A stretch of 64,000 nucleotides of DNA from Nemertoderma westbladi (taxonomy: Eukaryota; Animalia; Xenacoelomorpha), in NCBI GenBank assembly GCA_032718475.1, contig JAUCBJ010007504.1, positions 21,107-85,106 on the forward strand, in the 5' to 3' direction. Below the pieces are notes generated by a model that was not told where the DNA came from, searched no databases, and saw only the letters and a program-made list of their open reading frames with translations. Made by a program: the position numbers and the translations under genes. Positions 26,742 to 49,487 of this stretch are shown piece after piece; within the stretch, counting starts at the first letter, position 1, and every line of letters starts with the position of its first letter.

Positions 26742-26858
26742 AGTTGTTCCTTCCCTATTGCAGTAGGGGCCTATTGGATTTACTGTTTGGTCGGTTATCG
26801 TTTCTGGTGGGTTTGTAGGTATCGGTACCGGTATGTTATCCCGGAACGACCGAACTGC

Positions 26859-26877
26859 TATCCTACTCGCAGCGCCA
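26859..26877 (-). promoter_or_regulatory. Primer binding site, tRNA-Ser-like
   Basis: TGGCGCTGCGAGTAGGATA directly after the 5' LTR; tRNA identity from memory of tRNA-Ser 3' ends. Confidence 0.75.
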
Positions 26878-27104
26878 TGAAATGATTGTCTGGTTTAAGA
26901 TCTTGCATATCGGTATTATATTTGAACTCAGTTCATAAGATATATAAGAGTACATATACTACTGTACTGCCGAAGCACTACTGCACTCAAATACCCCAAC
27001 ACCAGTATCTCGCTATGCCCTAAGCCTAATACAGTCCTAGGCCCAACCTCAAGGGGCGAGCCATCTGAATTGGTGAGTCTCCTCCTTATCACCTAATTCC
27101 ATCA
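26878..27104 (-). repeat. 5' LTR of Gypsy element
   Basis: Matches 21841-22067. Confidence 0.97.
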
Positions 27105-27272
27105 CCTTCTAGAACAAGCACAGCACAATACAAACAAAAAACCACTTACTGTGTTTCACCTTAACTGTCGCAGTCTCAATAAAAATATACAGGAAACTTC
27201 AGACTATCTGGATTTATTAAATAAAAAGTTCGATATACTTACATTCTCTGAAACCTTTCTTACAGATAATAC
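27105..27272 (+). pseudogene. LINE ORF2 APE endonuclease N-terminus, truncated
   Basis: LTVFHLNCRSLNKN...FDILTFSETFL; similarity ends after about 27272. Confidence 0.85.
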
Positions 27273-28404
27273 ACGTTGTGGGGTCTTCGAGCAGCACGTG
27301 TTCAAATGTTCAATGACTGCGCAGCGACTAATTAACAAATTTATGAGGGATTCATTGACCAGCTACCGACAGACCAATATTGTGACATATATTTTAGTTT
27401 AATGTTTGATTCAATTAGAGGCACAAATTAAAAAGGCTACAAATATATAGGGTTGAATAATTAAATTAGTCACCCATTAAAAGGTAGGCAAATATAAGTT
27501 GCAATCTATATAAATTTTTAAATTCAGTAGTGTGCGTGTGTTGTGTATTGATTCCGTAGATTTCATGTTGAAATAGCGTTCATTAACTTAATTTCTATTT
27601 AATTATTCAGGCATACTAATACCCACTTTAAATTAGTTCGTGTGTGTTAAGTGTGTAAGAATTGATTGTTTTGGCACGAACCCATTAGGGCACAGAAACT
27701 GACGGATTCTTCGCGAATTTCGCAAACGTCGCAAACTTCGGTAATTTTTTCTACAATTTTGACTCCTTAAGCAAAAGTGTCCCGAATGAGTTTTTTAACT
27801 TTTATTTTTTTGTGATTTTGAGTGCTTTTTTATATTAGTGAATGTTCTAGAACCTTAGTAGATTTTTTATGGTATATAGCTAGTATTTTTTACTAGCTAG
27901 TAATTTTTGGAAATTATTTTGGTCATTAATATATTCTTCAACAGTTTAACCTGAAATATCATGGACTTTCACATTTTTTATAATTTCTAAAAATACTAGC
28001 TAGCAAAAAACACTACCGGTAGCTATCAATAAGAACATCTATATATAGAACATCTTCACCAATAACAAAAAAATTTAAAAACTCTAAAAAAGGATTGGTG
28101 AATAATCGCTGGGGTGTCGACAGGGCGAAGTAGGGACCGTGTTGCTTAACCCCTTAGAGCCTATGACGTCCACTGCACGTCACCATGGACAACACTAAGA
28201 CATGCAGTGGACGTCATGCTGCAATATGCTGCAATACATGTTTCATTGGAAGGCTCTTGGTCTAGGTATACTGGTGGATAGTATTAAAGACATTTAGTGC
28301 TCTTCATGGCAAAAAATCCATTCTGTACTGTAGATAGGCTGTATTGTAGACTGTAGTATTAGTGTTAGGTATATGGCGTAATGCCAACCACAGTACAGTA
28401 GTAC

Positions 28405-28950
28405 AGACTGACAGTAAGACCGACAGACAGACAGACTAGATTTATGTAAACGTGTAAACTGACATCAGAAATGAAATCAGCAACCCTTAACACCCCCATA
28501 GCGGGAATGTTGGTTAGTTAGTATACTTTCTTAAGTTTTGACAGACTGACTGACAGAAAGACCGACAGACCAACAGCCAGACAGACTAGATTTATTAAAC
28601 GTGAAAACTGACATCTGAAATGAAATCAGCACCCATTAAAACCCCCATAACGAGAATGTTAGTTAGTTTGTATTCTTTTTAAAGTTTTGACAGACTGACT
28701 GACTGACAGAAAGACCGACAGTCCGACAAACTAGATTAATGTAAACCTGAAAACTGACATCAGAAATGAAATCAGCACCCCTTAAAACCCCCATAGCGAG
28801 AATGTTAGTTAATTTGAATTGTTTTTTATGTTTTGACAGACTGACTAACAGAATGACCGACAGACAGACAGACTAGATTTATGTAAACGTGAAAACTGAC
28901 ATCAGAAATGTAATCAGCACCCCTTAAAACCCCCACAGCGAGAATGTTAG
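28405..28950 (+). repeat. ~145-150 bp tandem repeat x4 with GACA/GACT microsatellite cores
   Basis: Repeated AAACTGACATCAGAAATGAAATCAGCACCCCTTAAAACCCCCATAGCGAGAATGTT. Confidence 0.85.
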
Positions 28951-30648
28951 CGACACGTTTTAATTATTAACCATATTTCGTAAGATATATTTCATCATCA
29001 TAGCGCCCCATTTGGTGATCTCCAGTGAATGTTTGGATTTGACCTGACCAAAATTGGTTTACTACGGAAGATCCGCAGTGGGCACACCTAAGCGGGTGTG
29101 GGCCACTCGGAATCCGACGACGCGGCGCACATATTGACATTTGGCGTATGTACATTTCTTACAGTAGGGAGCCACTGGGTTAAGAGTTTTTACGGTATAC
29201 TTAATATGAACAAAAAGAAGAAAGTGTTGGCGATGTATCTGAAAAATAAATAAATAAACGTTGCTCTTTGTATCTCAAGTTGATTTGGATTAGGACAATG
29301 TGATACTTTTAACTCCTGCAATAATTCAGGTGGTTTGATGAGACTGCTTAGGGGTGGGGTGGGGTGTGGGGGGGGGGGGGGGGGGGGGTAACTGAGAAAA
29401 TGTGACAAAGAAATGGAAAGAAAGGCAATGTTATAGTAAATGGATTTGGGTTATGTAATACTCTGTAGCAGCTGCTGGCTCCGAGGTAACTAATTTTGTA
29501 TAGCCTGGGACTGACTGTCGCTGGGTAGTATATTATTGAAGACATAAGTACACGTTCGTGGGGCCTTCGCGCAGCACGAGGCCCAGTTATGAGATACAAA
29601 TTAAAATTGAGCGACTGTATCACAAAATCAGGTTTTGAGAAATTTACCCACACCACCAATCAATCAAAGAAAGGGGGACAGTACGTGTTCACCCCTTTTA
29701 ATCCCCCCCCCCCCCCCCACCCTTCCCAACCACCAATACATAACCGCGACATCTACCACCCACGGAAGGGTAGCACGAACTTATTTCCAATCGCACGTTC
29801 AATATGCAAAGCCAGGTGGTTTATAGGAATATAATAAACGCAGTACTCGTATTCATTATAAGCCTCGTTGCGTTCGTCCTGTTTTGTATTTAAATATATT
29901 TCTTAAACGCAGGCTAGGACGTTCTTTATAATAATAATAACTAGGGATGCGATCAATATGTGAAGCCAGGTGGTTTATATAATAATTTAGTCAACGCAGT
30001 ACTCGTCTTCATTATATGCCTCGTTGCGCTCGTCGCTTGTCCTGTTTTGTTATAAAATATTTTTCCTAAACGCAGACTGACGATCTTTATACAGTTATAA
30101 CTATGCGAAGTTTCGAAACTGTGCGAGTAACTGTTGATACATCTATGTGGATATGTGTGATATGTGGAGATGTGTGATACAACGCCAACGCATCTTATGC
30201 CGATGTAGTAATATGGGTATTGAAATAATATTAAATTAATGTACACTCTTAAAGCTGCAGCGAAAAAATGTAGCTAATTTCCTAGGTTACATATAAAATA
30301 ATAATATTATTTTTAAGAACATTAATTTTACTACTTTGCAAAAATTCAATTAAAAAATAACCAGACATATACATTGTGGAATAAACTATTTCAGAAGCCT
30401 ACACAACAACCATGCCATGGATAGTATTTATGTTATGATATCTGTCATTCACCTGAGATAGCAATACAACATTTATAGTGAATTTAAAGAATGCTGTCTG
30501 GGCTGGAATAGCAATACTGGTTGTCTATTACTATTCCTCTCTGGTTAGTCTTAGCAACAACTCCCAGCCAGCAGCAGAGACTTGACCAATAATCATTCCC
30601 AGCAACTGGGAATGACACACACATCCCATCTATGTACCAGCATGTTGG

Positions 30649-31118
30649 CCAATAAATGAGCAGTATTTAATGAGAATAAATTTTTTTTGCCGTTTTAATT
30701 ACTTTAGATCAATTAAAGACAAAATTATTAAAGCAAATCACTTGAACTAATTAAAAACTATAATAGAATGGCGTATGGGGATTACATCTGTATAATTTTT
30801 AATTATAATTATTTAAATCTTATACTGTAAAACAATTAATTTCCTTTAAAAGGCAGGTTGAAAATGGTGTTTTTACCGTAATAACTTAATTAACTAATTA
30901 ACTGCTATTATCTTAGCTTCTCGAAGGCCACACTGAAATTCTACTTGGAAAATTTCTAAACTTTTGCCAAACAACATGTGTACCAAGTTTGGATAGATTT
31001 CATCAAAGATTGGCCGAGTTATTAACGTTTAAAATTGAACACGACAGAACGACAGAACGACAGGTTGATTAATGGTACCACTACGCTAAGGCTCACTCAC
31101 TTCGTGGCTCGCCCCACA
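30649..31118 (+). repeat. Dispersed ~470-bp repeat, DINE/Helentron-like non-autonomous element, copy 1
   Basis: Near-identical to 55006-55490; ends in (ACGACAGA)n then GCTAAGGCTCACTCACTTCGTGGCTCGCCCCA. Confidence 0.75.
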
Positions 31119-31356
31119 GTTTTATTTTTGCTTGTAATCAGCTGTTATCTGCGTCGATTTTCCCCTGGAGAGAATAAAATAAAATAAATTTTCTTCGGGC
31201 GTTATTTCCAGTGCGGTCCCCCCCTCCCCACAACTACAGTATACCCCAAAGGAAGCTCCAGTATTCATTTAGCTACCACTAAAGGATGCAATGCAGAGAG
31301 ATATGCGCACTGGCAATTCCCTTCGTAGCTTTCGGGCCAAAACGAAAAAAACTGCC

Positions 31357-31430
31357 CTGGACCGTTGCGAGGATCGAACCCACAACCTCCGAGAAATGTG
31401 AATTCAATGAAACCACTACACCAAGGTGGG
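31357..31430 (-). repeat. tRNA-derived SINE-head-like sequence
   Basis: Minus strand TGGTGTAGTGG (A box) and GGTTCGATCC (B box) with tRNA-like spacing; no full cloverleaf. Confidence 0.5.
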
Positions 31431-31571
31431 ACCCCAGAGGGTTAAGATTGGATTGCAACACAGGCGCCCCCCCCCCCCCCCCATATCTGAGAAAATTCTC
31501 CCCTTTCTTTATTCGTCTAAAAAAATGAATACATCGAAGTCTATATTTACAAAGTCATATCATAATATCAT

Positions 31572-33820
31572 CAGTGCCGGATTAAGCCTCAGATGGCCCT
31601 AAGGCACATTTTAGTAATTTCCAAAAATGGCCCGAAAATTGATATTTTTCCGCAAACCCTTTCAAAAGAAAAAGCTGCTAAAAACAACTGAAATTGTGAA
31701 AATGTTGCGAAGGAAATATAAAGTTTTTTCGTCGGATTACTGCGTGCAAATTTAACATTACTAAACGGCATATTATGCCTATAAAACCTTTGCTATAAAA
31801 TGTGTAATGGTTTTGGTAGAACTTCTGAAGCTTTAATTTTTAATATATTAATGGGGGACCATTACCCCAAATCTATTTGTTTTATTTATAAAGCTACTAT
31901 TCTAAAACTTTAATACAATTATCTGTGATCTTATATATACTATTAAATAGCTAGCTTCATAAACTCTTTGTTCGAAAAATATGGCACTTTTTGAGCAGGT
32001 CGGTTTTTTCAAAAATTCTATAAATTTGTGGCATTTCTATGTAAATTATCTCATGTTTAAGGATCTGTAATATCCTTGCAGGACATTGCTTTCGCCGTGA
32101 GGACCAGCCAGTGCATAATCTTGTACTTTGGCAGCCTCATGGAGTGAATTAGCATGGTGGACAGCCCATGACTTTCTAGAGACGCATCTTAAAGGACACT
32201 GGCCTTGAAGATGCGGATGATCTAGCAAATGTCATGGGTGATAGGTAGTTGTGGCGGGGCAATTTTGTTGACAAGCCGGCACAGCATTCTTAAAATGCAG
32301 CTGCAATGCAGCATGCCGATCCTAGTAGTAGTAGTAGTAATACCCTGCATTTAAGTTCTTGGTCCAAGACTTTGGTAAAATGGACCTAAAAATGTAGGCT
32401 TTCTTCTATGATGATTTTAGCACAAAATTATTGTTTTTGAAAAATTTAGGGGGGTTTTAGTATTTCCGGGCTATATTTTGTGATAGACAAAGTGTAACAG
32501 TTACAAAATCGGTTCTAGAAGATCCAAATGGCCATGTTTTACAAAACCAACGATAGTAGTACTAAAGCTGCGGAACATTTTGGTATATGTTTGATGGAAA
32601 TTGAGTAAAAAATAAAATAGTAGTAGGGAATTTAGTGATGAATAAAGTCAAAATTGACAAACTGAGAAAAAGGTTGTTTTATACAGAGAGTCATAAATAT
32701 CAGCAATTTATTTATGTTGTTGAAAAGAGCAGTTTTGAGGTCAAAAAATAATTCACTGTTGAAAACCAATATCACCTTATGAAAGAAAGCCATTCTATCA
32801 AACTACAAAAAATTGTGTAAATTTTCGAAAATTTCATTTCTGTGGGGGTTATAGTTGGCCCCCTTAAGGCTGACTGGCCCCTGTCAGCCTGTAGGCATTT
32901 AGTAATTTTGATCGGATCTTGGGAATGTGTTATTTATTTGCTGTAGGTTTCGCAGGGTACTTATCTTTACAGGACTTGCTGAGAAATATAGCACACCAAA
33001 AGTGTGGGCTTAGTGCAAAGATCTAATATTTCTGATCTATATTTGGACTTGCTGAGAAAGTAATGTTCTTCGATAAGAGAACAGTCTCGCAAATAAGCAC
33101 TTTCTGTCGCTAATTTTAATTTACCCAAATTCAATTGTGCTGCCCAAAAGTTTTATGTTTTGCAGGTATTGCACCTAAAATGCCATCGAATGCAAAATTC
33201 AAAACACGAGGGCAGAACATCTGAATTTCGGTTAAATTAAATTACAGTAGTGACAAGAAATTATTTCTGAAATTATTTCTTTTTTTTTATCAACAACTAT
33301 TTTATCTACAATTAATTTATCCTTTTTTTTTTTATCTATTAGGGCCTATATTTATAAAACTCGTTTCCGGAAAAAAAATTAATTTCGCACTACCATATCT
33401 CCACGCCATACATTTACTATGAACAGTATTTCCAGTATGTCATTATTTGGTTGTTCTTAAGTTTAAGAGCATAACTACAAATAATTCCCCACAAATAGAA
33501 ACAAATTAAATTCTCCATTGTTCATAATTAGCACTTTAAAGTTTTACTGCCCATGTTTTATTATTTCCCTGCCATCAGATCTCGAACTAATAACACAGCA
33601 CCTGTCGGTCGACTGAGCTAGAATTTTGCACTTTCTATCACAAATAATTTAGGGATAGAAAGTAGTCGAAAGATGCACTTTGTTGCTCTGTTTCCGGACT
33701 TTTCAGATAAAAATATTTTTTTCATAGGATCACAGGAATGACTCGCAAAAAAAAATGGCCCGGATTTTCGGCTGGCCCTAAGGCACGTGCCTTATATGCC
33801 TTAAGGTTAATCCGGCACTG
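31572..33820. mobile_element. Non-autonomous hAT DNA transposon
   Basis: TIR CAGTGCCGGATTAA...TTAATCCGGCACTG; perfect 8-bp TSD AATATCAT; subterminal GGCCCTAAGGCAC at both ends. Confidence 0.93.
32100..32340 (+). mobile_element. 5'-truncated RTE-like LINE 3' end
   Basis: Decayed KDTGLEDADDLANVMGDR*LWR peptide like RTE C-termini, followed by a (TAG)n tail. Confidence 0.55.
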
Positions 33821-35842
33821 AATATCATATATAAAATTTAACAAAAACCAACAAAAATTAGCAAGAATATCATAACATCATTAATTTAGTATTTTTTCGA
33901 TAGAAATATGTAAACAAATAATTTTTTAATTAAAGATACCACACACCCATGCGGTAAACATTATTAGTAAAGTAATAAATAAATAAGATTATTCACTAAA
34001 AACAATTATAGTGTTAAGTTGGATAATCCAAACGATAAGAGTTGGACATCGAGGACATTTTAGGGCGTGGTAAAGGGACTGGGTAAACAAATACCAATTT
34101 GTATTATTTCATGTATTGCCTAATCGCTCAGATGCAAAATTTGCACTGGAATTTAAAAGCAAAGTTTTTTGTACCAAACACATTTATTTTATGTATTTGT
34201 AATTATTATAAATTAATTTCGCACAACAAAATCGCCAGGGTGACATATTTTCCAATTCCAGTCCTTTTCCTTAATGTCCAGTATATTCATAATATGTTAA
34301 GGATAGAAAGTCTTCCCCAGCAATAAAAACGTTTTGTATTATTATTATTCGCGAGGCCTCCAGTATATTCAGTATGTCACCGCGTCATTCTAAATATAAC
34401 CACATGATGACGTCATTTGAATATACAAGCATGTATTATTCATAATATGTACCTAATACTTACAAAATAATAAAATGGCTAAGATTCGAAATGACTGACT
34501 GCTCTTACATTCATAACTCAACATATCTACCAAGCTAATATGGCGCGAGATTATAACTATTTATTTTACAAATAGAAAATACAATTTTTTTGTCTGACTT
34601 TAAAATCCGTAGATTGCAAAGAGGAAAACAACTACTTTCTTATGGTAAAAGATGCTGTTTTCTTTAAAATATTCACTTTTGAATTAAAACTTTACAGTAA
34701 CAAAGTTATCTCAAATTTGTATTAAGTAAATTACGCCATGTTATTGGCAGATAAGTATAGAGTACCGGTACACATAAAAATTTAAATTTCAATACGTAAA
34801 ATAGGCGCAGCACAAATTAGAAAAACGCAGAAATCACCACTTGTTCTTTTTCTTTATTTTATCTCAAATTTGAGGTCAATTCTGCACCATGTATTTAAAG
34901 AATACTAGATACTATATACAAGTTATACTTTGTGAATGATGATGATATTCCATAAAGTTAATAAAATAGTCAAACCAAAAATTCGATTAAGCTATCTACC
35001 GGTACTACTGGAGAAAACGATTATACTAGCAAACACTGGATGCTATATTTATGTATAAATTTATTAACGTAATTACTTTATTGATCTAGAATAAATAATG
35101 CGTCTTAATTTGTTAAATTTTGCTCAAAAATACACTAAAATCGGGAGAAAAATTTTCACTTTTTTCCCTAAAGAAAAAATTGAATAAGGATTGCATTGAT
35201 TTTACTTTTTCCCGGTGAAAAAAGTAATATAACATATTTTTGGTGGAATTTCTTAAATTTTATTACATGTGTTTAAAGAGCATGGAAGTAGAAAAGGTTT
35301 GCACGTTAAGTTATTACAGCTTTAGTGTCTGCAAGACGAACTCCAAAACGGAACTCAGTATCCAATGTTGGTTTTATCTAGTTAAGCAGCTCTCTAGTTA
35401 GGTAATAAATATTCGAGAACACTAAATTATTTAACATTGAGTAAGGCAGCATTAGGAGTTGAAAAATACAATAATTTGACTCACAGAAACTATGGCAGCA
35501 ATATAGTATAGTACTATATAGTTCAATTTATTTTGTTCATATATTCATATATCGCTCTATATAAAAGCAATGCTATCCTATGGGTTACTTTTTCGTTAGG
35601 GAAAAAAGTACTCCCCTTTCTCCCAATTTTGGGGTATATTCGAGCGAAAAAGTAACAATTTACGAAGATGCCATGCTTTCCTGTTACAAGTTTATTCTAG
35701 AATATTTAAATATGCAAAACTATTATTGATAACACTCGTGCTGGGTTAGTGGATCTTTAATTCCCACGGAAATCAGCTCAGATAATAATTCAGAGGATGA
35801 TCATAGTTCGAAATAAATAGAGTTATTGAAGACAATACTTTA

Positions 35843-38800
35843 TCACTTTCTTGAGGAATGTTTCTGTTTATTCAGATTATATAGTGCTAGAATAATGCAC
35901 TCGATCAGACGCTTCTGTAACGGCCAATACTTAAATTGGTGACACATATCACTAATACATTCGTCATTAATCGCAATATTTGAAAATTCTTCTCCATTCG
36001 TGAGTAGCTGGAATGAGTGACTTACTTTCGATTCCAATGATTTATATCCATGGACTTTCACTGTTAATTCAGGAAGTATTTCCCAGCATTCATGCAAAAA
36101 GGTGTTACTAGTACTTGAAGAACCCATCATGTTCCACATGTTTGCCAATCCATTGAAAGTTTTATAAAACACATCCTTTGAGGTTTCAGGAGGCTTGAAT
36201 AACTGAACCATATCTTTAGCGAGAAATCGTTGCCATATATTAGCAGGATGAAGGTTTCGACATAAAATAAGCGAAAACTTTGACTTTCGTAGATGCAAAC
36301 TCTCAGAACTTTCACAGGAATGAATTTGGTGGATAAAATTCGTAGGAAATATTTCCAACCAGGTCGATACCCGCTTCTCAAGTGGTACCTCCTTGGCAAA
36401 ATTTTGAGCACTCATATCAGTAATATCACCGTGTGTGAGCTGAATATATGGAGTGTCAAATAGAAGCACCCGTTCTATTAATGTTGGGCTAGCAGGCCTC
36501 CAGTTTAAAATTGAGACGATAGTCCATTTTGGGCCAGGTGCAAGAACTGTCAATCTGACATCACCAAGTTGGAACAATGTCAGCTGCCGATGTACTTCAA
36601 CAATATGGGCAGAGTCACTATGACGCGTATCTGGAACTAGAATTGAATAAAGTCCATGAAGCATGGCATCTCCTATATCGTCAAACTTACTGATATTGGC
36701 TTCTTTATACCAGTTAATAACATTTAATGACACATTAAGTTCATTGGAAAACTTCATAGAGTTCCCTGACATCAATGATTTTGCAAGTTTAGATGTCTGC
36801 TGTTTGCGCATTAGTCGGTCCTTCCTCCTAGCAGCTTCTGCTTCCTTCTCCGTATTGAATTTATCAGCGTAATTTGGCCTCCGAACAAAGAGATTGAGGG
36901 CAAGTCCTTTGACAATCTTTGGCAAATGCGCTAAAGGTCCTCTTGATGCATGGAGTAAAAATCCCGCACTGTGATGTACACGAAGTGAATTATTAGCAAG
37001 TCTAAATGGAGATTGAGTGTCAAGGAACTTCCTGAGACCATCGACTAATCTCTTCGTTATCCATTTCAGTTCAGCATTATCTGGAAACTGTTCTATCGAA
37101 ATCGATAACACATCACATACTGGTAAAGAGTTTTCTTCCAGTTGATTACATGTTAAGGCTGTTAATAGACGGCAGTCTGAATTAAACAGGATCTCAATAA
37201 GAGTTGAGTCTGAGGTATGTTTATAAACTTGATGTATGAGATTCACTTTTGCACAAAAGACAAGTTCCGGAGATGACTTTGTTTTGCTGTGCCAGATTGC
37301 AATTCCCATATTAACTGTACCTGGATCGATGCCGACAGACCTGATTGATTTCAGATTTAGATTTTGGTTAATATTGTTGTCTAGTTGGCGGGAATAAATG
37401 GGTATAGTCAATATCGCTTCTCCCATTCCAAAGCGTTTAGTAAAAGCTTTGCTGTTTTCAATTAAGACAAGCTCTTCACGGTTCCTTTTTAAATCCATTT
37501 TCGATGTTCCAAGCTTCAAAAAAGTTTCTTGAGAAAAGGGTTCAGGATATAGATTGCTACAGCCATCAGCGCGCGTGAAGGATACTTGGACAAGCTGGCT
37601 CAGCATACTCAAATTGCTTCGGGCGAGTTCATCAGCATTCAAATTGATATACACTGGACGACCTGGATATTCCTTACTTTGAGATTTATGCACCGTGATG
37701 GCATGATTCGGAACGAAAGGAAATTGTGTCCGTGTGATCTTTTCCGCATATCTTCTGCGACGTTTGCCAGTGAGCCTGCTAGACATGGGGAAAATTCGAA
37801 CCCATGTAGGATGATCCGGAAAATCGGACTCCAAGCCATCCTCAATATCATATGATGGTATATCTACAACGACATGGTTAGGTTGTGGATGCTCACCGCG
37901 CATAACAGCATCACAGTCTGATCTTCCGTACACTATTTTCTTAATAGTCCCAGTGCCACCATTGATAATTCTTTTTTTGACACTAATGTTGTCTACAAAT
38001 AGTACATCCAACCCAATATATAATGGAATGCAGTGTTCAACCATTATATCAAAATCTGATGGTGAAATCTTCTCCACATTAGCAAGGTTATGATTATAGT
38101 TGGCAATTGATAAGAATAACGGAACATTGTGGAAGCAAATCTCATCTACACAAGCTCGCGCATTTCTAAACATTCTTGTACTATTATCATACAGTAGTGA
38201 TACAGGTTCAATTCCTAAATTATGTCGCGTGGGGTGGGTACCCAGTGTGTTCATTGCCTTAAAAACTTCACAATAGTCTGTTAATGTTTGATCTCCTGTG
38301 CGTATTCGCCCCGCAATACTAGCTAGTTGGCTATCGGATCGATACACATTATTCAAACATATGACATTTGGTCGTATCTCCGTTTGGTAAAGTTTATGGC
38401 CTAAATGAGATGGTGCCTTAGCTCTGGCTCCTCGACTAGGAGGAGTTGTATCCAACAGGTTCGGTGGCGAATCCCAAAGTGCGCGGGATAACACTGGTGG
38501 GAGTTGGCCAATGTCACCAACAAACATCGCTTTTTTGCCACCCCACAGCTGACCATACTTTCCTGTCGCATGTTGTAAAGAACTGTCCAACAGTGCTAAG
38601 GTTACTGGTGATGCCATTGAAATTTCATCTACAATGACTACTTTAACATCTTGTAGGAACTCTTTGATTTGGGTCTGTCGATTGGATATTTTGCTAGGAT
38701 TGTTGTCCCATAAAGTTTTACCATTATAGATACCATAAAAACCCTCTAAGGTGGAGCAATGGAGGTTTGCAGCTGCCACTCCACTAATACCATGAAGTAA

Positions 38801-41800
38801 AACCTTTGATTCACCCAGTATATGATATATCCGTTTTATGACTTCAGTCTTACCTGATCCACCGGGCCCATGTAAGAAGAGCGTTTTCACGGAAGGCACA
38901 CCATTAACCTCATCATTACACATCAAATCGACAGCAAGCTGTTGATATGGATCCAAAATACGTAATCCACCTTCATCACGAGAAGGACCGCCCATAAATG
39001 TCTTTGAAGAATTTTGCAATTCCTTCCATGATGATAATACTGCAGAATACTCTGTGGAATTAATATCTATTGAATCAAAGGAAGATATAGGTCTACAGGG
39101 AATTTCATCAATGCATGTGCGTAATATATTTTCAGGCTCTATATAGGAATCACAATCAAAATCATTGCTGAGCAATTTACTCAATGAAATCTTCTCTATT
39201 TCTAAGTTTTCTAATGTTGGATCCTGAAGAGCACCACTAGTATCACCTTCATCACAACCATAAGATTCATGTTCTATTTCTAGAGGGACGCAGTTGAATT
39301 GAGATTTTATCTTTGTAATATACTTTGAATGTTCACTCTCCGATTTGAAGGTATTTTGGAAGACCCGAAAACGAAAACAAGGATCATTACATTTGACTGA
39401 TATCTGAAATTCTTCGGTTTGATTTAATGTTGACCTGCTGCGCTCAGATAGGTTCTGCATCCACATCTCGTAAAACCTTTGGTATGCCATTATTACATCC
39501 TTCCTTCCAGATTTGATATCATCCTGTAGAATCTCATCAATAAATATGCTTAAAGAAGTAAAAGGAAAAAACGCAATACATTCTAGCCGCAGGTTCTGTA
39601 GTGCACGCTTGTCATCAGAATTTAGAGAACTCCATGTCGATCCTTGCAAAGCATTTAATTTTTCAGGACGATCTGAAAACTGTTGGGGCACAATGTGTGG
39701 AACTCTAGGAAAATTTGAATTAACTCTCTTGTATATAAAAATGTCATCTTTCTTATTATATGAACAATTTACTGTTCGGAGGAAATCGAAGTAACTCATA
39801 CTTTCAGGTGACTCTAAAGTTGATGACCAATTCACATTAGAATTTGTTCTATTTAAATAAAATTTCAAATTTGACTTAGCTGGTACAATGAATATGTTTG
39901 TAACTTTGTAAATATCGGCGTTGTTGGTCTCTAAATTACTGCTATCTTCAGTGTCGGATATTCTATCGCAAATTATTGTTTCGATAGTATTTGTATCTCG
40001 AGTTATACTTGCTACAATTGGTGATGTTTGACTGCACTTCAATGGCAGTATGCGAGGCATGCATGATATAGTGTCTGGGAGATCAAGAGAATGGAATAAC
40101 AGCTCCCTTCTAGTCATGTCCTTGGGATTAAATATATGTGCAATAGTTAATCGGCGAACAATGCTCTGTATGGTTATATCAGGTTCGCTCTCAACCAGTT
40201 GCATGAGTTTTACAACTGCAGCATCAACTGATGATGATAGTGATGTCGACTTGGCAGCATATTTAACTGCATATCTTATAACGGAAAAAGGGCAACTGAT
40301 TACTGTTAAATCGGTGTTAGCCCGCCAGTATTGTTGAAGGATGGGGTTAATATTATTTAGTCTAGCAAATGACTTATGTTCTCTCTTCGTTAAAACATGA
40401 CATTCCGTAAATTCCATTGTTGCAGTTACTTTTGAAAATCCAATTTTTGTAGAGTCCCGCCGTGGCTTCATTCCTCCATGGCGACAACCATCTCCACTGG
40501 AATTACCTCCACAAGTTTCTTGGTGGCAGTCATGGATTTGTGCTAATGCAGCTTGATGAGATCTATCTTTCCATTCGGGGTTACACAAGTCTTGATGGTT
40601 AATGGGATCTCGCATCAGAGGGTGATTATATGGAGTATATTGATCTTTTGGGGGAAGTTTGCGCCATTCCTTTAAAATCTGCCTGAGATCTACTAGAGTT
40701 TCGTTTTCATCTGCAAAATTAGTAGTTATTAAACTATCATATAGATTTGTCAAATAGACCTCAGCTAATGTACCAACGTGTAATATTCTAGTTGCCTTAT
40801 TTCTGAAGCTCTCTTTCATTTTCCCTTCTGCCCACCATTTCTTCACAGTTCGTGCACGATGAATAAGATGAGATAACAAGATTGGTTCGTATACATGATT
40901 GAGGCGAAGAAGAAAGTGCCAATGCTGCACACCACGGGAAGGTCCCCATTCAACGCGGCCCCAATACCATCCAGAAGTAGCATCGACATCACAGACACGC
41001 TGAAAAAAGGCCTTTGCCATGATCTTCATCTTCATGTGAAGGTACTGTTCCACAATAGCTGCATGCTTATTTAAAAGATTGTTCCACTCTGTTCTATTTA
41101 TAATGAACCAATCTGATGAGAACTGATCATTGTTACCATTATTCTCACATAAGAATATGAGTCGCCTAACTCCATAATCTGTTCTCAGATTATTATTAAA
41201 TGTCACGAAGACATTCGGAAATCCAGATGTCATGCATAACGATTGTAATTGCATGCGTATAGATTTCCATCGCTCACAGGAGTGTGGGTATCGTCGCAAA
41301 TGGGCGACTAGTAGTGGTGCAACCGACTCGGGATGTCCACGATTGAAAGCCAAAAGAAGATCATTGATTCTAATATTCTCAATCTCAGCCTCACTATGCA
41401 AATAGAATCTTATACCATCCATTGCCGTAGTAAGATTAAGTTGATCGTAAACTACGAAAGAATAAATATCATCTTCGGCATAAGGCCATCTAAATCGGCC
41501 ATCATTTTCCTTTACAGCATATTTAAGCTGGTGACTCAACGTTTTCTTAAGTATATCCAAATGTGTGCGATGTGATTTACCATTGTCATCCTCAGTGAAC
41601 AGAATATCAGTGATAGAGGTTTGTTTATCACCATGTAGATCTGGAAATTGATCCTGAATGCGCCAGTTGTGTGAGGACACTTTATTCTCCCACATTGAAG
41701 TGACATCAATGTGTTGCGGATTTCCAGATAATTGCGACTCCACAGCTTGCCGAATTCCAGTTTGAATATACCCACTCAGACTCTCATTGGTACGGAATAG

Positions 41801-42919
41801 GTTATGAGCAGTGCTATCAGATTGTGCATACATGTCATCCTGCACTTCCCGCACAGTGCAAACTATGTCTTCATCTTCAAGAGTCAATGGTTCTGTACAT
41901 ACACGATTAAACTCTTCCACTAAATGTAGCAACTCCTCATCAGATACAACATGAGTGTAACAACTTCTTTGATTGACGAGATGATGAACCCATAATTTAA
42001 CAACATTACTCCGCACTTTCATTCTCTTGATGATTTTATCTTTATCATCTTTTGCAACAACTACAACGTGACTGGAAAATTCTGTATGTGGAATAACATT
42101 TTCCAGTGTTTGCTTTAAGTTATGGCTTACTACTATGCTATGACAACCAAAACGCGGGCCTCCTGCAAAGTCAAATTTTACGCTGGTGAAAGCTTGCTGC
42201 TTGGAAATCATACACCGCTCAGCTGGTGAACATTTTGGTAAGTGACCAATGTTTGATTGATATTCAGCAGGAACCATTGTTGTAGATAAGGCAATATCTC
42301 GGTGATCTGGTTTCTGAGTTTTCCTTTTCATCCTTGACTTACATGTTGAACATTGATTATTGGTATATTCCTTGGAAGGTCGAACTGTAATTTCGTGGCA
42401 AACTTCGCATTGCTTTAAGCACCAATCTGTACTCCATTGCCTTACAGCATCCCCCATTACATATTTTACAAAAGCCGAATCCTGCCTCTGAATTATCTGA
42501 GCTTGATTCCGTTGATCCTTTTCAAGAAATTCAAGATGTTTTCGAATGCGCTGATCCCAGGGCCACAAGGGTATCTGCATTTTTTTAGAATCATCCTTAC
42601 AGCGCGCTAATTCAATCTGGAAATTCTCTACCTCTACTGGATTAGCATCTACATTACACATTTCAAGCTCTATGTCAGTATCAACTGATTTAACTCCCCA
42701 GTTATCTAAAGTACATTTTAACAAACTTAGTTCTTTATCAAGTTCCAAATAGAAGGGACATGATGTACAAAATTTAGTTCTCTCTTCCCATGAAGCTGGA
42801 CCCTTTGCAGACTCTGTTCCATTATTTTGTCTTTGTCTTTGACTTTGCTTCGAGTGTCGATCAGTAGTTCGTTTTTTTTCCCGCACTGTTTGAGAAGTTT
42901 GTTTTGTTCGCTTTGCATT
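35843..42919 (-). CDS. Helitron-type Rep/Pif1 helicase, giant terminal exon, with C-terminal RuvC/A22-like domain
   Basis: HUH Rep motifs FPNVFVTFN, VEWGPSRGVQHWHFLL, YAVKYAAK; Pif1 motifs GPGGSGKT, IVDEISM, GDIGQLPPV, RTQFP..AITVHKSQ; VGIDPG, ISIEQ, KFDDIGDA; acceptor TTTTTTAG just upstream of 42919. Confidence 0.92.
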   Translation of the reverse strand, partial: NAKRTKQTSQTVREKKRTTDRHSKQSQRQRQNNGTESAKGPASWEERTKFCTSCPFYLELDKELSLLKCTLDNWGVKSVDTDIELEMCNVDANPVEVENFQIELARCKDDSKKMQIPLWPWDQRIRKHLEFLEKDQRNQAQIIQRQDSAFVKYVMGDAVRQWSTDWCLKQCEVCHEITVRPSKEYTNNQCSTCKSRMKRKTQKPDHRDIALSTTMVPAEYQSNIGHLPKCSPAERCMISKQQAFTSVKFDFAGGPRFGCHSIVVSHNLKQTLENVIPHTEFSSHVVVVAKDDKDKIIKRMKVRSNVVKLWVHHLVNQRSCYTHVVSDEELLHLVEEFNRVCTEPLTLEDEDIVCTVREVQDDMYAQSDSTAHNLFRTNESLSGYIQTGIRQAVESQLSGNPQHIDVTSMWENKVSSHNWRIQDQFPDLHGDKQTSITDILFTEDDNGKSHRTHLDILKKTLSHQLKYAVKENDGRFRWPYAEDDIYSFVVYDQLNLTTAMDGIRFYLHSEAEIENIRINDLLLAFNRGHPESVAPLLVAHLRRYPHSCERWKSIRMQLQSLCMTSGFPNVFVTFNNNLRTDYGVRRLIFLCENNGNNDQFSSDWFIINRTEWNNLLNKHAAIVEQYLHMKMKIMAKAFFQRVCDVDATSGWYWGRVEWGPSRGVQHWHFLLRLNHVYEPILLSHLIHRARTVKKWWAEGKMKESFRNKATRILHVGTLAEVYLTNLYDSLITTNFADENETLVDLRQILKEWRKLPPKDQYTPYNHPLMRDPINHQDLCNPEWKDRSHQAALAQIHDCHQETCGGNSSGDGCRHGGMKPRRDSTKIGFSKVTATMEFTECHVLTKREHKSFARLNNINPILQQYWRANTDLTVISCPFSVIRYAVKYAAKSTSLSSSVDAAVVKLMQLVESEPDITIQSIVRRLTIAHIFNPKDMTRRELLFHSLDLPDTISCMPRILPLKCSQTSPIVASITRDTNTIETIICDRISDTEDSSNLETNNADIYKVTNIFIVPAKSNLKFYLNRTNSNVNWSSTLESPESMSYFDFLRTVNCSYNKKDDIFIYKRVNSNFPRVPHIVPQQFSDRPEKLNALQGSTWSSLNSDDKRALQNLRLECIAFFPFTSLSIFIDEILQDDIKSGRKDVIMAYQRFYEMWMQNLSERSRSTLNQTEEFQISVKCNDPCFRFRVFQNTFKSESEHSKYITKIKSQFNCVPLEIEHESYGCDEGDTSGALQDPTLENLEIEKISLSKLLSNDFDCDSYIEPENILRTCIDEIPCRPISSFDSIDINSTEYSAVLSSWKELQNSSKTFMGGPSRDEGGLRILDPYQQLAVDLMCNDEVNGVPSVKTLFLHGPGGSGKTEVIKRIYHILGESKVLLHGISGVAAANLHCSTLEGFYGIYNGKTLWDNNPSKISNRQTQIKEFLQDVKVVIVDEISMASPVTLALLDSSLQHATGKYGQLWGGKKAMFVGDIGQLPPVLSRALWDSPPNLLDTTPPSRGARAKAPSHLGHKLYQTEIRPNVICLNNVYRSDSQLASIAGRIRTGDQTLTDYCEVFKAMNTLGTHPTRHNLGIEPVSLLYDNSTRMFRNARACVDEICFHNVPLFLSIANYNHNLANVEKISPSDFDIMVEHCIPLYIGLDVLFVDNISVKKRIINGGTGTIKKIVYGRSDCDAVMRGEHPQPNHVVVDIPSYDIEDGLESDFPDHPTWVRIFPMSSRLTGKRRRRYAEKITRTQFPFVPNHAITVHKSQSKEYPGRPVYINLNADELARSNLSMLSQLVQVSFTRADGCSNLYPEPFSQETFLKLGTSKMDLKRNREELVLIENSKAFTKRFGMGEAILTIPIYSRQLDNNINQNLNLKSIRSVGIDPGTVNMGIAIWHSKTKSSPELVFCAKVNLIHQVYKHTSDSTLIEILFNSDCRLLTALTCNQLEENSLPVCDVLSISIEQFPDNAELKWITKRLVDGLRKFLDTQSPFRLANNSLRVHHSAGFLLHASRGPLAHLPKIVKGLALNLFVRRPNYADKFNTEKEAEAARRKDRLMRKQQTSKLAKSLMSGNSMKFSNELNVSLNVINWYKEANISKFDDIGDAMLHGLYSILVPDTRHSDSAHIVEVHRQLTLFQLGDVRLTVLAPGPKWTIVSILNWRPASPTLIERVLLFDTPYIQLTHGDITDMSAQNFAKEVPLEKRVSTWLEIFPTNFIHQIHSCESSESLHLRKSKFSLILCRNLHPANIWQRFLAKDMVQLFKPPETSKDVFYKTFNGLANMWNMMGSSSTSNTFLHECWEILPELTVKVHGYKSLESKVSHSFQLLTNGEEFSNIAINDECISDMCHQFKYWPLQKRLIECIILALYNLNKQKHSSRK

Positions 42920-43536
42920 CTAAAAAACAAAATTGCATAAGGCTAAAAATAACAAAATCTGGCAAAATTTAAGTGAGATTTTGGTTTAGTAAAATCTTTA
43001 GTAGGTTTAGCCAATACGTACAATTATATATCATATCCTTCCCGATCTGAAACCAGAAAATCGATATAAATATGCGATGAAAATAATGCAAAGAACTAGT
43101 AAACTAATATTCGAGAACACGAAATTATTTTAACATTGAGTAAGGCAGCATCCGGAGTTGAAGAGTACAATAATATGAATCGCAGTAACTATGGAAGCAA
43201 TATACGTAGTTTAAATACTACAGTTCAATTAATCTTATAACACTACTGTACTGTAGTATATCGCTATGTTTTATTACAGAATTTAGCAACAAAAAAGTAC
43301 CAATTTATGAATAAAATTACTTATTACATGGGAAAAAAACGTAGAACATTTTTTTTTCAATATTCTATCGACCCTTTATTAACCTCGCTAGCGCTCGGTA
43401 AAAGTATCTTGAGAATAATGAAAAAAAGTTCTACTTTTTTTCCAATGTAATAAATAATTATTCTCACTACCAAATAAAATAAAACCTTGAAAAAATCATT
43501 GGAATTCTACAACAAAATTTAAATAATTCAACTAAC

Positions 43537-43662
43537 CTTATCAATAGTTCGTTCCCTAGAACGGAAGATTTCATTCATTCGTTTCCTCCCTACCCTAGAT
43601 TTGTCTATCATTCGCCTCTTTATTCTAACAGAATGGTCTTTCGACTTGGAACGTCTTGACAG
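43537..43662 (-). CDS. Predicted 126-nt phase-0 exon of the Helitron gene (copy nearest main exon)
   Basis: TTTCAG acceptor, GTTAGT donor; LSRRSKSKDHSVRIKRRMIDKSRVGRKRMNEIFRSRERTIDK. Confidence 0.65.
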
Positions 43663-43841
43663 CTGAAATATAAATAAATAACATATTATTAGTTCTCCTA
43701 TCTAACATAGAGGCCGGACTTTATCAGCCATCAGCGTGTTCTAATTTAAGAAGAATCGCAAAATCGATCAAAGGTCTGCATCTACTAACGCATGAACTGT
43801 TTCATTGATGGCTTAATATCAATCTTACTCATAAAATATTC

Positions 43842-43914
43842 ACCGGAAGCGGGGATTGAACTCGGTACCTAGAATTTTACAAGTCTAACGCTCTACCAAC
43901 TTCGCCAATGCGCC
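43842..43914 (-). repeat. tRNA-like degenerate sequence repeated in each 1.44-kb unit
   Basis: TGGCGAAGTTGGTAGAGCG and GAGTTCAATCC; copies near 46781, 48225 and partial 49675. Confidence 0.5.
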
Positions 43915-44354
43915 GTATGAAGCCTTATATGCGATGAATATGCGATGAAAATAATGCAAAGCCCAGCTTTTTGTAATGAATGATTTGGCCATGCCTGCAA
44001 CTCAAAGTAAGAAATAACAACAAAAATAAGCAATAAAGTAACGAGATTTATCCTTTCGTTTATTACACAATAATACAATAATTTCCCACCACCAGTGTAT
44101 AAAGACATAAAGTCCGTATTTTTAATAACTTTAATATTTTATAGTCTTCTGTTTTAAACTGCATAAACATGAAACATGCCACATTTCTTAACGTTTAGAT
44201 TATTGTTTTGGTTCCCTCAACGCTCAACCCGCCTCCGTAACCGGCTTCTTTACTAACATGCCTACAGCACAGTGAATATGACCATATATATAATATATAT
44301 TACAGTAGTAGGAGCCCCGCTCGACAGCGGGATACTAATGTAAAAATCTCAGGT

Positions 44355-45905
44355 GTGACTGACTGACTGACTGACTGGCTGACTGATTGACTGGCTGACT
44401 GGCTGACTGGCTGACTGGCTGAGTGGCTGAGTGGCTGACTGGCTGACTGGCTAACTGGCTGACTGGCTGACTGGCTGACTGGCTGACTGGCTGACTGGCT
44501 GACTGGCTGACTGGCTGACTGGCTGACTGGCTGACTGGCTGACTGGCTGACTGGCTGACTGGCTGATGGCTGACTGACTGACTGGCTGACTGACTGACTG
44601 ACTGACTGACTGACTGACTGACTGACTGACTGACTGACTGACTGACTGACTGGCTGGCTGGCTGGCTGGCTGACTGGCTGACTGACTGACTGGCTGACTG
44701 GCTGACTGGCTGACTGGCTGACTGGCTGACTGGCTGACTGGCTGACTGGCTGACTGGCTGACTGGCTGACTGACTGACTGGCTGACTGGCTGAATGGCTG
44801 AATGGCTGACTGGCTGGCTGACTGGCTGACTGACTGACTGACTGACTGACTGACTGACTGACTGACTGACTGACTGACTGACTGACTGACTGACTGACTG
44901 ACTGACTGACTGACTGACTGACTGACTGACTGACTGACTGACTGACTGACTGACTGACTGACTGACTGACTGACTGACTGACTGACTGACTGACTGACTG
45001 ACTGACTGACTGACTGACTGACTGACTGACTGACTGACTGACTGACTGACTGACTGACTGACTGACTGACTGACTGACTGACTGACTGACTGACTGACTG
45101 ACTGACTGACTGACTGACTGACTGACTGACTGACTGACTGACTGACTGACTGACTGACTGACTGACTGACTGACTGACTGACTGACTGACTGACTGACTG
45201 ACTGACTGACTGACTGACTGACTGACTGACTGACTGACTGACTGACTGACTGACTGACTGACTGACTGACTGACTGACTGACTGACTGACTGACTGACTG
45301 ACTGACTGACTGACTGACTGACTGACTGACTGACTGACTGACTGACTGACTGACTGACTGACTGACTGACTGACTGACTGACTGACTGACTGACTGACTG
45401 ACTGACTGACTGACTGACTGACTGACTGACTGACTGACTGACTGACTGACTGACTGACTGACTGACTGACTGACTGACTGACTGACTGACTGACTGACTG
45501 ACTGACTGACTGACTGACTGACTGACTGACTGACTGACTGACTGACTGACTGACTGACTGACTGACTGACTGACTGACTGACTGACTGACTGACTGACTG
45601 ACTGACTGACTGACTGACTGACTGACTGACTGACTGACTGACTGACTGACTGACTGACTGACTGACTGACTGACTGACTGACTGACTGACTGACTGACTG
45701 ACTGACTGACTGACTGACTGACTGACTGACTGACTGACTGACTGACTGACTGACTGACTGACTGACTGACTGACTGACTGACTGACTGACTGACTGACTG
45801 ACTGACTGACTGACTGACTGACTGACTGACTGACTGACTGACTGACTGACTGACTGACTGACTGACTGACTGACTGACTGACTGACTGACTGACTGACTG
45901 ACTGA
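44355..45905. repeat. (GACT)n microsatellite ~1.55 kb with GGCT variants at left
   Basis: Directly visible; pure GACT from about 44827. Confidence 0.99.
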
Positions 45906-46475
45906 TATTTGACTGGAATTTGAGCAAAATCCATTCACACACTCAAAAGTTATTGCAAATTTGGTGTCTGCGTGGCGTACTCCAAAACGGAACTCAATAT
46001 CCATTATTGTTTTAAGTTGTTAAGCGGCTCTCTAGTTACGTAATAAATATTCGATAACACGAAATTATTTTAACATTGAGTAAGGCAGCATCCGGAGTTG
46101 AAGAGTACAATAATATGAATCGCAGCAACTATGGAAGCAATATACGTAGTTTAAATACTACAGTTCAATTAATCTTATAACACTACTGTACTGTAGTATA
46201 TCGCTATGTTTTATTACAGAATTTAGTAACAAAATAGTACCAATTTATGAATAAAATTACGTATTACATGGGAAAAAAACGTAGAACATTTTTTTTTCAA
46301 TATTCTATCAACCCTTTATTAACCTCGCTAACGCTCGGTAAAAATATCTCGAAAATAATGAAAAAAGTTCTACTTTTTTTCCAATGTAATAAATAATTAT
46401 TCTCACTACCAAATAAAATAAAACCTTGAAAAAATCATTGGAATTCTACAACAAAATTTAAATAATTCAACTAAC

Positions 46476-46601
46476 CTTATCAATAGTTCGTTCCCTAGAA
46501 CGGAAGATTTCATTCATTCGTTTCCTCCCTACACTAGATTTGTCTATCATTCGCTTCTTTATTCTAACAGAATGGTCTTTCGACTTGGAACGTCTTGACA
46601 G
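46476..46601 (-). CDS. Predicted 126-nt phase-0 exon copy
   Basis: Same splice sites and open frame as 43537-43662. Confidence 0.6.
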
Positions 46602-47919
46602 CTGAAATATAAATAAATAACATATTATTAGTTCTCCTATCTAACATAGAGGCCGGACTTTATCAGCCATCAGCGTGTTCTAATTTAAGAAGAATCGCAA
46701 AATCGATCAAAGGTCTGCATCTACTAACGCATGAACTGTTTCATTGATGGCTTAATATCAATCTTACTCATAAAATATTCACCGGAAGCGGGGATTGAAC
46801 TCGGTACCTAGAATTTTACAAGTCTAACGCTCTACCAACTTCGCCAATGCGCCGTATGAAGCCTTATTTCTAAATCCCAACTGGAAATTAACAACAACAA
46901 CAACAACGAATTGAACATTAGAGGTCTCGCTACGCGGACCTAAAAAGTAATTAACGAATGTAACAACAGATATATATTCGTTATTCCTGTTTATATTATA
47001 AAAACAGTTGAGAGTTCACACGTGAACATCTTGTCCCTTGAAGAATATCATTAGAGCTATAGTTGGCCCTACATTGTAACCCTGTAAACGTTATAGTTAT
47101 TTGAGAAATGCTGGTTGCTATTATCTCATGCATTTAAAACAAAATTTTTATTCTTAAATTGTAACTTTTTCGCTCGAATATACCCCAAAATCGGGAGAAA
47201 AAGTTTCACTTTTTTTCCCTGAGGAAAAGAATAACCCATAGGATTACATTGATTTTACTTTTTTCCCGGAGAAAAAATTAAAGTAAAATATTTTTGCTCA
47301 AATTTCTTAAATTTCATTACATATATTAAAATAGCATCGACGTAGAAAGGGTTTGCAAGTAATTTGAGCAAAATCCATTCATACACTCAAAAGTTATTGC
47401 AAATTTAGTGTCTGCGTGGCGTACTCCAAAACGGAACTCAATATCCATTATTGTTTTAAGTTGTTAAGCGGCTCTCTAGTTACGTAATAGATATTCGAGA
47501 ACACGAAATTATTTTAACATTGAGTAAGGCAGCATCCGGAGTTGAAGAGTACAATAATATGAATCGCAGTAACTATGGAAGCAATATACGTAGTTTAAAT
47601 ACTACAGTTCAATTAATCTTATAACACTACTGTACTGTAGTATATCGCTATGTTTTATTACAGAATTTAGTAACAAAATAGTACCAATTTATGAATAAAA
47701 TTACGTATTACATGGGAAAAAAACGTAGAACATTTTTTTTTCAATATTCTATCGACCCTTTATTAACCTCGCTAACGCTCAGTAAAAATATCTCGAAAAT
47801 AATGAAAAAAGTTCTACTTTTTTTCCAATGTAATAAATAATTATTCTCACTACCAAATAAAATAAAACCTTGAAAAAATCATTGGAATTCTACAACAAAA
47901 TTTAAATAATTCAACTAAC

Positions 47920-48045
47920 CTTATCAATAGTTCGTTCCCTAGAACGGAAGATTTCATTCATTCGTTTCCTCCCTACACTAGATTTGTCTATCATTCGCTT
48001 CTTTATTCTAACAGAATGGTCTTTCGACTTGGAACGTCTTGACAG
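47920..48045 (-). CDS. Predicted 126-nt phase-0 exon copy
   Basis: Same splice sites and open frame. Confidence 0.6.
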
Positions 48046-49361
48046 CTGAAATATAAATAAATAACATATTATTAGTTCTCCTATCTAACATAGAGGCCGG
48101 ACTTTATCAGCCATCAGCGTGTTCTAATTTAAGAAGAATCGCAAAATCGATCAAAGGTCTGCATCTACTAACGCATGAACTGTTTCATTAATGGCTTAAT
48201 ATCAATCTTACTCATAAAATATTCACCGGAAGCGGGGATTGAACTCGGTACCTAGAATTTTACAAGTCTAACGCTCTACCAACTTCGCCAATGCGCCGTA
48301 TGAAGCCTTATTTCTAAATCCCAACTGGAAATTAACAACAACAACAACGAATTGAATATTAGAGGTCTCGCTACGCGGACCTAAAAAGTAATTAACGAAT
48401 GTAACAACAGATATATATTCGTTATTCCTGTTTATATTATAAAAACAGTTGAGAGTTCACACGTGAACATCTTGTCCCTTGAAGAATATCATTAGAGCTA
48501 TAGTTGGCCCTACATTGTAACCCTGTAAACGTTATAGTTATTTGAGAAATGCTGGTTGCTATTATCTCATGCATTTAAAACAAAATTTTTATTCTTAAAT
48601 TGTTACTTTTTCGCTCGAATATACCCCAAAATAGGGAGAAAAAGTTTCACTTTTTTTCACTAAGGAAAAAAATAACCCATAGGATTGCATTGATTTTACT
48701 TTTTTCCCGGAGAAAAAATTAAAGTAAAATATTTTTGCTCGAATTTCTTAAATTTCATTACATATATTAAAATAGCATCGACGTAGAAAGGGTTTGCAAG
48801 TAATTTGAGCAAAATCCATTCACACACTCAAAAGTTATTGCAAATTTAGTGTCTGCGTGGCGTACTCCAAAACGGAACTCAATATCCAGTATTGTTTTAA
48901 GTTGTTAAGCGGCTCTCTAGTTACGTAATAAATATTCGAGAACACTAAATTATTTTAACATTGAGTAAGGCAGCATTAGGAGTTGACGAGTACAATAATA
49001 TGAATCGCAGTAACTATGGAAGCAATATACGTAGTTTAAATACTACAGTTCAATTAATCTTATAACACTACTGTACTGTAGTATATCGCTATGTTTTATT
49101 ACAGAATTTAGCAACAAAAAAGTACCAATTTATGAATAAAATTACTTATTACATGGGAAAAAAACGTAGAACATTTTTTTTTCAATATTCTATCGACCCT
49201 TTATTAACCTCGCTAACGCTCGGTAAATATATCTCGAAAATAATGAAAAAAAGTTCTACTTTTTTTCCAATGTAATAAATAATTATTCTCAATACCACAA
49301 AAGATAAAACCTTGAAAAAATCATTGGAATTCTACAACAAAATTTAAATAATTCAACTAAC

Positions 49362-49487
49362 CTTATCAATAGTTCGTTCCCTAGAACGAAAGATTTCATT
49401 CATTCGTTTCCTCCCTACACTAGATTTGTCTATCATTCGCTTCTTTATTCTAACAGAATGGTCTTTCGACTTGGAACGTCTTGACAG
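49362..49487 (-). CDS. Predicted 126-nt phase-0 exon copy
   Basis: Same splice sites; lies in ORF-track 49353..49538. Confidence 0.6.

Follow-up and report, generated by a model that had tools for sequence, protein, structure and literature searches.

The locus and its surroundings

The window, i.e. the whole 64,000-nucleotide stretch of Nemertoderma westbladi contig JAUCBJ010007504.1 that was analysed, carries on its minus strand a single stop-free frame of 2347 codons (P0001, 42886-35843) in which a Rep domain, a helicase and a resolvase-like C-terminus are joined. A possible polyadenylation signal (AATAAA, 35691-35696, minus strand) can be read in the sequence about 150 nt past its stop. 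The frame opens with GTG directly 3' of a likely splice acceptor near 42920, and its earliest ATG is that of M77 (42658), so the true N-terminus of the protein is uncertain. A 63-codon ORF beginning with ATG (42727-42918, minus strand) overlaps the start of the long frame in another frame, across a run of eight A which we take to be a possible -1 slippery site, and this ORF may be the source of the true N-terminus.

The original prediction placed resolvase motifs behind a Pif1 helicase in one 2347-aa ORF, and the stop-free frame, the positions of the motifs and the contigs across the junction all bear this out. An assembly chimera is ruled out as the source of the fusion, since single contigs span the helicase-resolvase junction in all three sequencing runs examined (two studies) with 1-4 differences each, covering 35633-38312, 35633-38755 and 35635-38150; the fusion is therefore real DNA. 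At least 22 variants fall within the ORF, and those listed (9 silent, 13 replacing) have little bearing on selection acting on the window copy. The ORF and its flanks have similar contig depth, apart from a deeper gapped contig at 38121-39917. This suggests few intact copies and additional decayed pieces, depth being a poor measure of copy number. The window copy is itself only putatively mobile.

A search for short inverted repeats and hairpins around the ORF gave no credible terminus pair and no terminal inverted repeat or hairpin pair, where an HLE2 element would be expected to have asymmetric or subterminal inverted repeats, a 3' hairpin and a TT target. Contigs over 26700-35100 form only a patchwork of high-copy repeats. 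The high-copy repeat on both sides of the ORF (35103-35666 and 43106-43462) was considered as the element ends and rejected for the upstream copy. That copy sits inside a polymorphic insertion of 868 bp (43069-43936), which is bordered by a 25-bp direct repeat and is missing from an X1 contig, where 43068 is joined directly to 43937. This insertion, which is not an element terminus, is a 98% copy of part of a 1.44-kb tandem unit at 45917-49715 and has, by eye, a tRNA-like head; ARAGORN and Rfam were negative on it, and it is possibly a retroposed read-through. The tandem array consists of about 2.6 head-to-tail copies of the unit, which contains a very high-copy element of about 700 bp that has a long hairpin end, and a diverged fold-back version lies at 35103-35666. 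Between 44316 and 45905 there is a 1.55-kb four-base microsatellite followed, on the minus strand, by a GC-rich hairpin, much like the 3' terminus of the non-autonomous elements associated with Helentrons.

The window is repeat-rich overall, with Ty3/Gypsy- and BEL-type ORFs and satellites that point to eukaryotic, probably animal, DNA. An intact Ty3/Gypsy-type LTR retrotransposon (21841-27104, minus strand) has a 1558-aa ORF with RT, RNase H and integrase, and its two 227-bp LTRs are 100% identical, so its insertion is recent. Nested satellites occupy 12648-19695, where oppositely oriented 80-bp arrays (12648-14649 and 18946-19695) enclose 67-bp arrays. A BEL/Pao-type gag ORF (DUF1759; 61266-63998, plus strand) runs off the window edge.

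Rep and helicase domains

The Pfam families found in P0001 cover its N-terminal three quarters, with no resolvase family on the last ~500 residues. The first is DUF6570 (aa 215-320, 41927-42244, minus strand), which lies upstream of Rep and falls just below the Pfam cut-off (E 7.7e-5, 23.6 bits against 24.3), with relatives reaching E 2e-9; DUF6570 is a marker of HLE2 elements in the HELIANO paper (PMC11417382). The HUH Rep domain follows at 40259-41209 (minus strand), with Helitron_like_N placed at aa 508-660 (E 2.7e-8). Its motif 1 (VTFNNN), motif 2 (RVEWGPSRGVQHWH) and motif 3 (YAVKY) are conserved in the Rep alignment. A Pif1-family SF1 helicase spans aa ~1332-1790 (37517-38893, minus strand), with a PIF1 match at aa 1332-1468 (E 4.8e-15), matches to Pif1 structures in the PDB, and the last helicase motif, VSFTRAD, at aa 1768. 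An HUH Rep with all three motifs thus stands upstream of a Pif1 helicase within one ORF, as in Helitron-like elements.

A predicted resolvase-fold domain behind the helicase

About 80 aa past the last helicase motif begins a series of motifs comprising VGIDPGTVNMG (aa 1851, 37336-37304), ISIEQ (aa 1929), RKQQT (aa 2027) and KFDDIGDAML (aa 2067, 36688-36659). These lie in a predicted domain of the A22/Ydc2/TEFM-type RuvC fold (domain 1, aa ~1847-2083, 36638-37348, minus strand), whose predicted catalytic acids are D1854, E1932, D2070 and D2073, with N1859, K2028 and K2067 as further site residues. By spacing rather than superposition, these residues match D7, N12, E60, R101/K102, K129, D132 and D135 of the fowlpox resolvase (PMC6962361).

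The predicted D, E, DD.D pattern is present, and its four acids are invariant in domain 1. D1854 and E1932 are unchanged in all 26 rows covering these positions, K2028, K2067, D2069, D2070, D2073 and H2077 in 29 of 29, and N1859 in 21 of 26. The KxDDxGDA motif served as the search pattern for the metagenome loci, so that its invariance there is built in, while D1854 and E1932 lie outside the pattern. The resolvase-type spaced pattern, although composed after the sequence had been seen, fits the ORF at a single place and none of 2000 shuffles; together with residue conservation across the alignment rows, this rules out a chance motif.

The fold was modelled with AlphaFold2 on a 30-row alignment made up of the window, 17 proteins and 12 of the 22 metagenome loci, chosen for open frames. 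The C-terminal model (pLDDT 77, pTM 0.62) has two alpha/beta domains that share strand order; a single-sequence prediction was uninformative (pLDDT 34). The model of domain 1 matches the fowlpox resolvase 6p7b with Z 12.9 (rmsd 3.1, 148 of 149 residues aligned), followed or equalled by TEFM (Z 12.9), the canarypox resolvase (11.6) and Ydc2 (11.1). Herpesvirus terminase nucleases (Z 10.3-10.8) and bacterial RuvC (9-10.4) rank lower, and Cas9, Cas12 and IscB reach at most 8.8. Foldseek agrees with a resolvase fold, its top viral match being a Medusavirus Holliday junction resolvase (E 1.8e-6), so the proposed RuvC/A22/Ydc2 fold held up in both comparisons. In the ESM Atlas, domain 1 leads to Pox_A22/Ydc2 clusters (0.91-0.92), although only 14-31% of the cluster members are assigned to those families.

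Sequence searches of the PDB gave no resolvase match, and there was no Pox_A22 or Ydc2-catalyt match at the Pfam cut-off, the best being Ydc2-catalyt at E 0.0066 (one of 13 members) and Pox_A22 at E 0.12 (P0007).

Two unsaturated pairs of six give dN/dS values of 0.18 and 0.21 for domain 1, compared with 0.12 for the helicase, also from unsaturated pairs. The resolvase module is under purifying selection (dN/dS ~0.1-0.25). From the model and the retained residues, domain 1 is likely to be an active, branch-specific nuclease.

A second, degenerate copy of the predicted fold

The original prediction placed the motifs of the first domain correctly, but ended the module at 36630, which did not stand, as a second resolvase-fold domain follows (domain 2, aa ~2104-2346, 36577-35849, minus strand), delimited by model secondary structure, a TEFM match and column counts. 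TEFM chain 9mna_B aligns to this domain alone with Z 9.5 (rmsd 3.7, 169 residues, model residues 249-501), and the RuvC region of CasPhi matches it at Z 7.3; an ESM Atlas search with domain 2 gave nothing useful.

In a comparison with domain 1 by eye, varied residues stand at the position of the first Asp, and Lys or Arg takes the place of the Glu in 29 of 29 rows. Only the last acidic position is retained, as Asp in 23 rows and as Glu one column off in four. The profile-profile similarity of the two domains is weak, with an hhalign probability of 1.8% and a score of 22.4, none of 20 shuffled controls exceeding 19.0. Domain 2 lies directly behind domain 1 in 21 of 22 metagenome loci, and its dN/dS values (again two unsaturated pairs of six) are 0.09 and 0.25. 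Domain 2 is likely to be a tandem duplicate of domain 1 that is catalytically dead.

Relatives of the fusion

The same fusion recurs in many other elements. A search with the C-terminal 513 aa found one protein, P0002 (34% identity), whose N-terminus aligns to the helicase tail. A profile of these two sequences gave six matches among 1.84 billion representatives, namely P0002, four fragments (33-38% identity) and P0007, in which Pif1 and the resolvase are fused in a protein of 950 aa (about 22% identity). Scanning metagenomes with K[AF]DD[LIY]GDA gave 336 pattern matches, from which 22 loci were confirmed. Helicase sequence lies directly upstream of the resolvase in 18 of these; the other four are on short contigs (1.2-2.4 kb) where the match begins within ~300 nt of the edge. 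In four loci the ORF is unbroken over 3041-3075 codons and encodes zinc fingers, DUF6570, Rep and Pif1; the Rep of these loci is 24-26% identical to that of the window (E ~1e-60).

A profile search among proteins of 985-2810 aa, a range that cannot reveal stand-alone forms, found 16 matches, some of which duplicate loci (P0008 is L009); PIF1 is present in 15 and Helitron_like_N in five. One cluster of relatives has 21 members on contigs of at least nine different lengths, including a 2932-aa protein with an N-terminal OTU domain. Relatives thus appear to be multi-copy, decayed and frameshifted copies exist among them, and tandem repeats lie downstream of several family loci. On this sequence evidence, the helicase-resolvase fusion marks a whole lineage whose members are ~20-35% identical.

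No match was found in a first homolog search among proteins of 1290-4108 aa, nor were relatives found in prokaryote genomes or in an initial metagenome scan. Viral contigs yielded no relative in three protein scans, and Helitron motif patterns were also without a match there.

Placement among Helitron-like elements

For the trees, the outgroups were 12 HLE1-type and 12 HLE2-type Rep regions on Helitron-bearing contigs, drawn from 86 motif matches in prokaryote assemblies. Contigs with full eukaryote-type Helitron/Helentron transposases occur in many bacterial and archaeal assemblies (L023-L107, e.g. L030, L045 and L048); these contigs are likely eukaryotic and present through binning contamination. 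A FastTree phylogeny of Rep (34 sequences, 276 columns) unites the window with nine relatives in one clade (support 1.0), which is sister to the 12 sampled HLE2 sequences and not nested inside them. The outgroups were picked by a motif absent from the window lineage, and represent HLE1 and HLE2 without the HELIANO subgroups, proto-Helentron and the elements of Paramecium. Built from 25 sequences, the helicase tree likewise sets the resolvase carriers apart from both outgroup groups (support 0.998). Five of the close pairs in the helicase tree also appear in the resolvase tree, consistent with joint inheritance. A profile of domain 1 found no match in 85 outgroup loci (best E 0.93), many of them short or non-Helitron.

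According to PMC4067079, the diagnostic motif 2 of HLE2 has (F/Y)xR before VE and S in RG-S-PH. The window lineage keeps the aromatic-x-R (W/F), has V, C or L at the S/L position, and is one residue longer in spacing. APE (Exo_endo_phos) had no match in the window or in seven relatives scanned, whereas it is fused behind the helicase in 3/3 canonical HLE2 controls; the resolvase pair fills this same slot. The best reading of these sequence data is a Helitron-like rolling-circle transposase of a separate lineage on the HLE2 side, which may be a class of its own.

The lineage had been suggested to be possibly undescribed, and we found no Helitron-resolvase fusion in the full-text literature, including the available text of PMC4067079, PMC13085455 and PMC5148889, with Repbase, Dfam and subscription reviews lying outside this search. 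HELIANO reports 20 extra domains, and the part of that source available to us has no Pox_A22, Ydc2 or RuvC among them (PMC11417382). Its Pfam cut-off, given there as E 1e-3, would miss a resolvase domain of the window type, and its unclassified clusters might include the resolvase-carrying lineage. Surveys based on Pfam miss the module, and the lineage may be much wider than found here.

Possible roles in transposition

Release and integration of the double-stranded, branched intermediate of a Helitron fall to an enzyme that cuts only one strand. The Helraiser (HLE1) transposase cuts and transfers only the plus strand, with a fork at the donor and double-stranded circles (PMC5876387); the other strand of the branches must therefore be cut by another activity. 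Poxvirus resolvases are homodimers which cut Holliday junctions, Y-junctions and bulges with little or no sequence preference (PMC6962361).

Our preferred reading, to which we give about an even chance (roughly 0.5), is that the tandem resolvase-fold pair, with one active and one dead copy, cuts one strand of the element's own transposition branches. Domain 1, carried by the helicase, would cut the strand that Rep cannot. Domain 2 would replace the second subunit, and the two domains would pack as an intramolecular pseudo-dimer with a single active site. This helicase-tethered site would then nick the branch behind Rep, either at donor release or after strand transfer. To our knowledge, other Helitrons transpose without such a nuclease, which counts against this reading, as does the structural ranking, where TEFM ties as best match and herpesvirus terminase nucleases are close behind. 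The weak sequence similarity between the two domains and the fruitless search for termini also speak against it.

A broader and more tentative proposal, plausible but short of an even chance, is that these elements are a further, deep-branching class of eukaryotic rolling-circle transposons whose junction resolvase came from a large DNA virus and was then duplicated, with one of the copies losing its activity, so as to leave a single-chain, helicase-tethered, one-sided resolvase for the second-strand step. If so, the element completes a step that other Helitrons leave to the host.

The classical alternative is that transposases dimerise through domain 1 and make paired cuts across Holliday or cruciform junctions, resolving concatemers or circle dimers, domain 2 being a structural or DNA-binding arm. 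The solved relatives are all homodimers, the poxvirus enzyme resolves concatemers (PMC6962361), and tandem repeats occur downstream of several family loci. However, the second fold copy in cis in 21 of 22 loci suggests that the dimer face is occupied, and Rep itself is able to cut plus-strand end junctions. Symmetric concatemer resolution is less likely because of the degenerate second copy, and we consider this alternative unlikely.

It is doubtful, too, that the module serves as a target-site nickase in place of the Helentron APE, so that the DNA it opens would be the insertion target and not the branches of the element. The resolvase pair does sit in the position of APE, for which PMC4067079 hypothesises a role in nicking and target preference, and a single active site would suit a nickase, but the nearest folds are those of branch-selective enzymes.

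We regard it as improbable that the window copy has been domesticated as a host gene, or that the family consists of endogenous viral or episomal replicons of the rolling-circle type and not of transposons. The window copy is intact, with low contig depth, a likely upstream intron, a poly(A) signal and no termini found, and the closest resolvase look-alikes are viral. Against this stand the decayed and frameshifted relatives, the 21-member cluster on contigs of at least nine different lengths, the gapped paralogous pieces in the host's sequencing runs, and the three protein scans of viral contigs without a relative.

A non-cutting, TEFM-like DNA clamp, which would hold the fork by its tandem fold and make the helicase more processive, is very improbable. 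TEFM, a resolvase-fold transcription factor not known to have nuclease activity, is among the top structural matches of both domains, but domain 1 keeps all four of its acids unchanged in proteins that are ~20% identical.

Fanzor1 is associated with some Helitrons, and an RNA-guided nuclease of the Fanzor/TnpB kind would also place a RuvC fold inside a Helitron (CasPhi matching domain 2), but we give this the slightest chance of all and reject the identity on fold ranking and architecture, since the RuvC region is contiguous and joined directly to the helicase, resolvases (Z 11-13) rank above Cas9, Cas12 and IscB, no TnpB/OrfB Pfam family occurs in the window or the relatives scanned, REC/WED lobes, a split RuvC with a zinc finger and a guide RNA were not found, no 3' flank is common to divergent loci at >80% identity, and Rfam is empty across 33000-50000.

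A lineage that keeps its own branch nuclease under selection makes the second-strand step testable with a single D-to-A mutant. A natural single-chain resolvase with one live and one dead half would represent a novel enzyme design and might serve as a tool for nicking junctions.

Comparison with known systems

The Helitron-associated Fanzor1 is likewise a RuvC-fold nuclease inside a Helitron. Fanzor is an RNA-guided descendant of TnpB, whereas the window domain is of the resolvase type, in frame with the helicase and with no guide found. TEFM, the mitochondrial transcription elongation factor, is an equally good structural match for both window domains; it is a stand-alone host factor, whereas domain 1 of the window retains all four acids invariant.

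With the poxvirus A22 enzymes (fowlpox 6p7b, canarypox 5e6f), Ydc2/Cce1 and the giant-virus resolvases, the window domain shares the fold, the D-E-D-D spacing, and the N, K and R/K residues. It differs in size, domain 1 having ~240 aa with insertions compared with ~150 aa in the poxvirus enzymes, at 15-18% identity. Unlike the A22/Ydc2 resolvases, it is also part of a transposase and is followed in tandem by a degenerate duplicate.

Helentron/HLE2 subgroup b elements (Rep-Hel-APE; PMC4067079, PMC11417382) have the same DUF6570-Rep-Pif1 order and a nuclease fused behind the helicase, and their zinc fingers and OTU are also found in relatives of the window lineage. OTU is N-terminal in P0029 of the window lineage and C-terminal in the HLE2 controls. 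Motif 2 of Rep reads RVE(F/W)xxxRGVQHWH in the window lineage compared with ExQxRG(S/L)PHxH in Helentron/HLE2, and the resolvase carriers are a separate clade from these elements in both the Rep and the helicase trees. The nuclease of Helentrons is an APE, whereas that of the window lineage is a tandem RuvC/A22-type module; two unrelated nucleases have thus come to occupy the position that follows the helicase.
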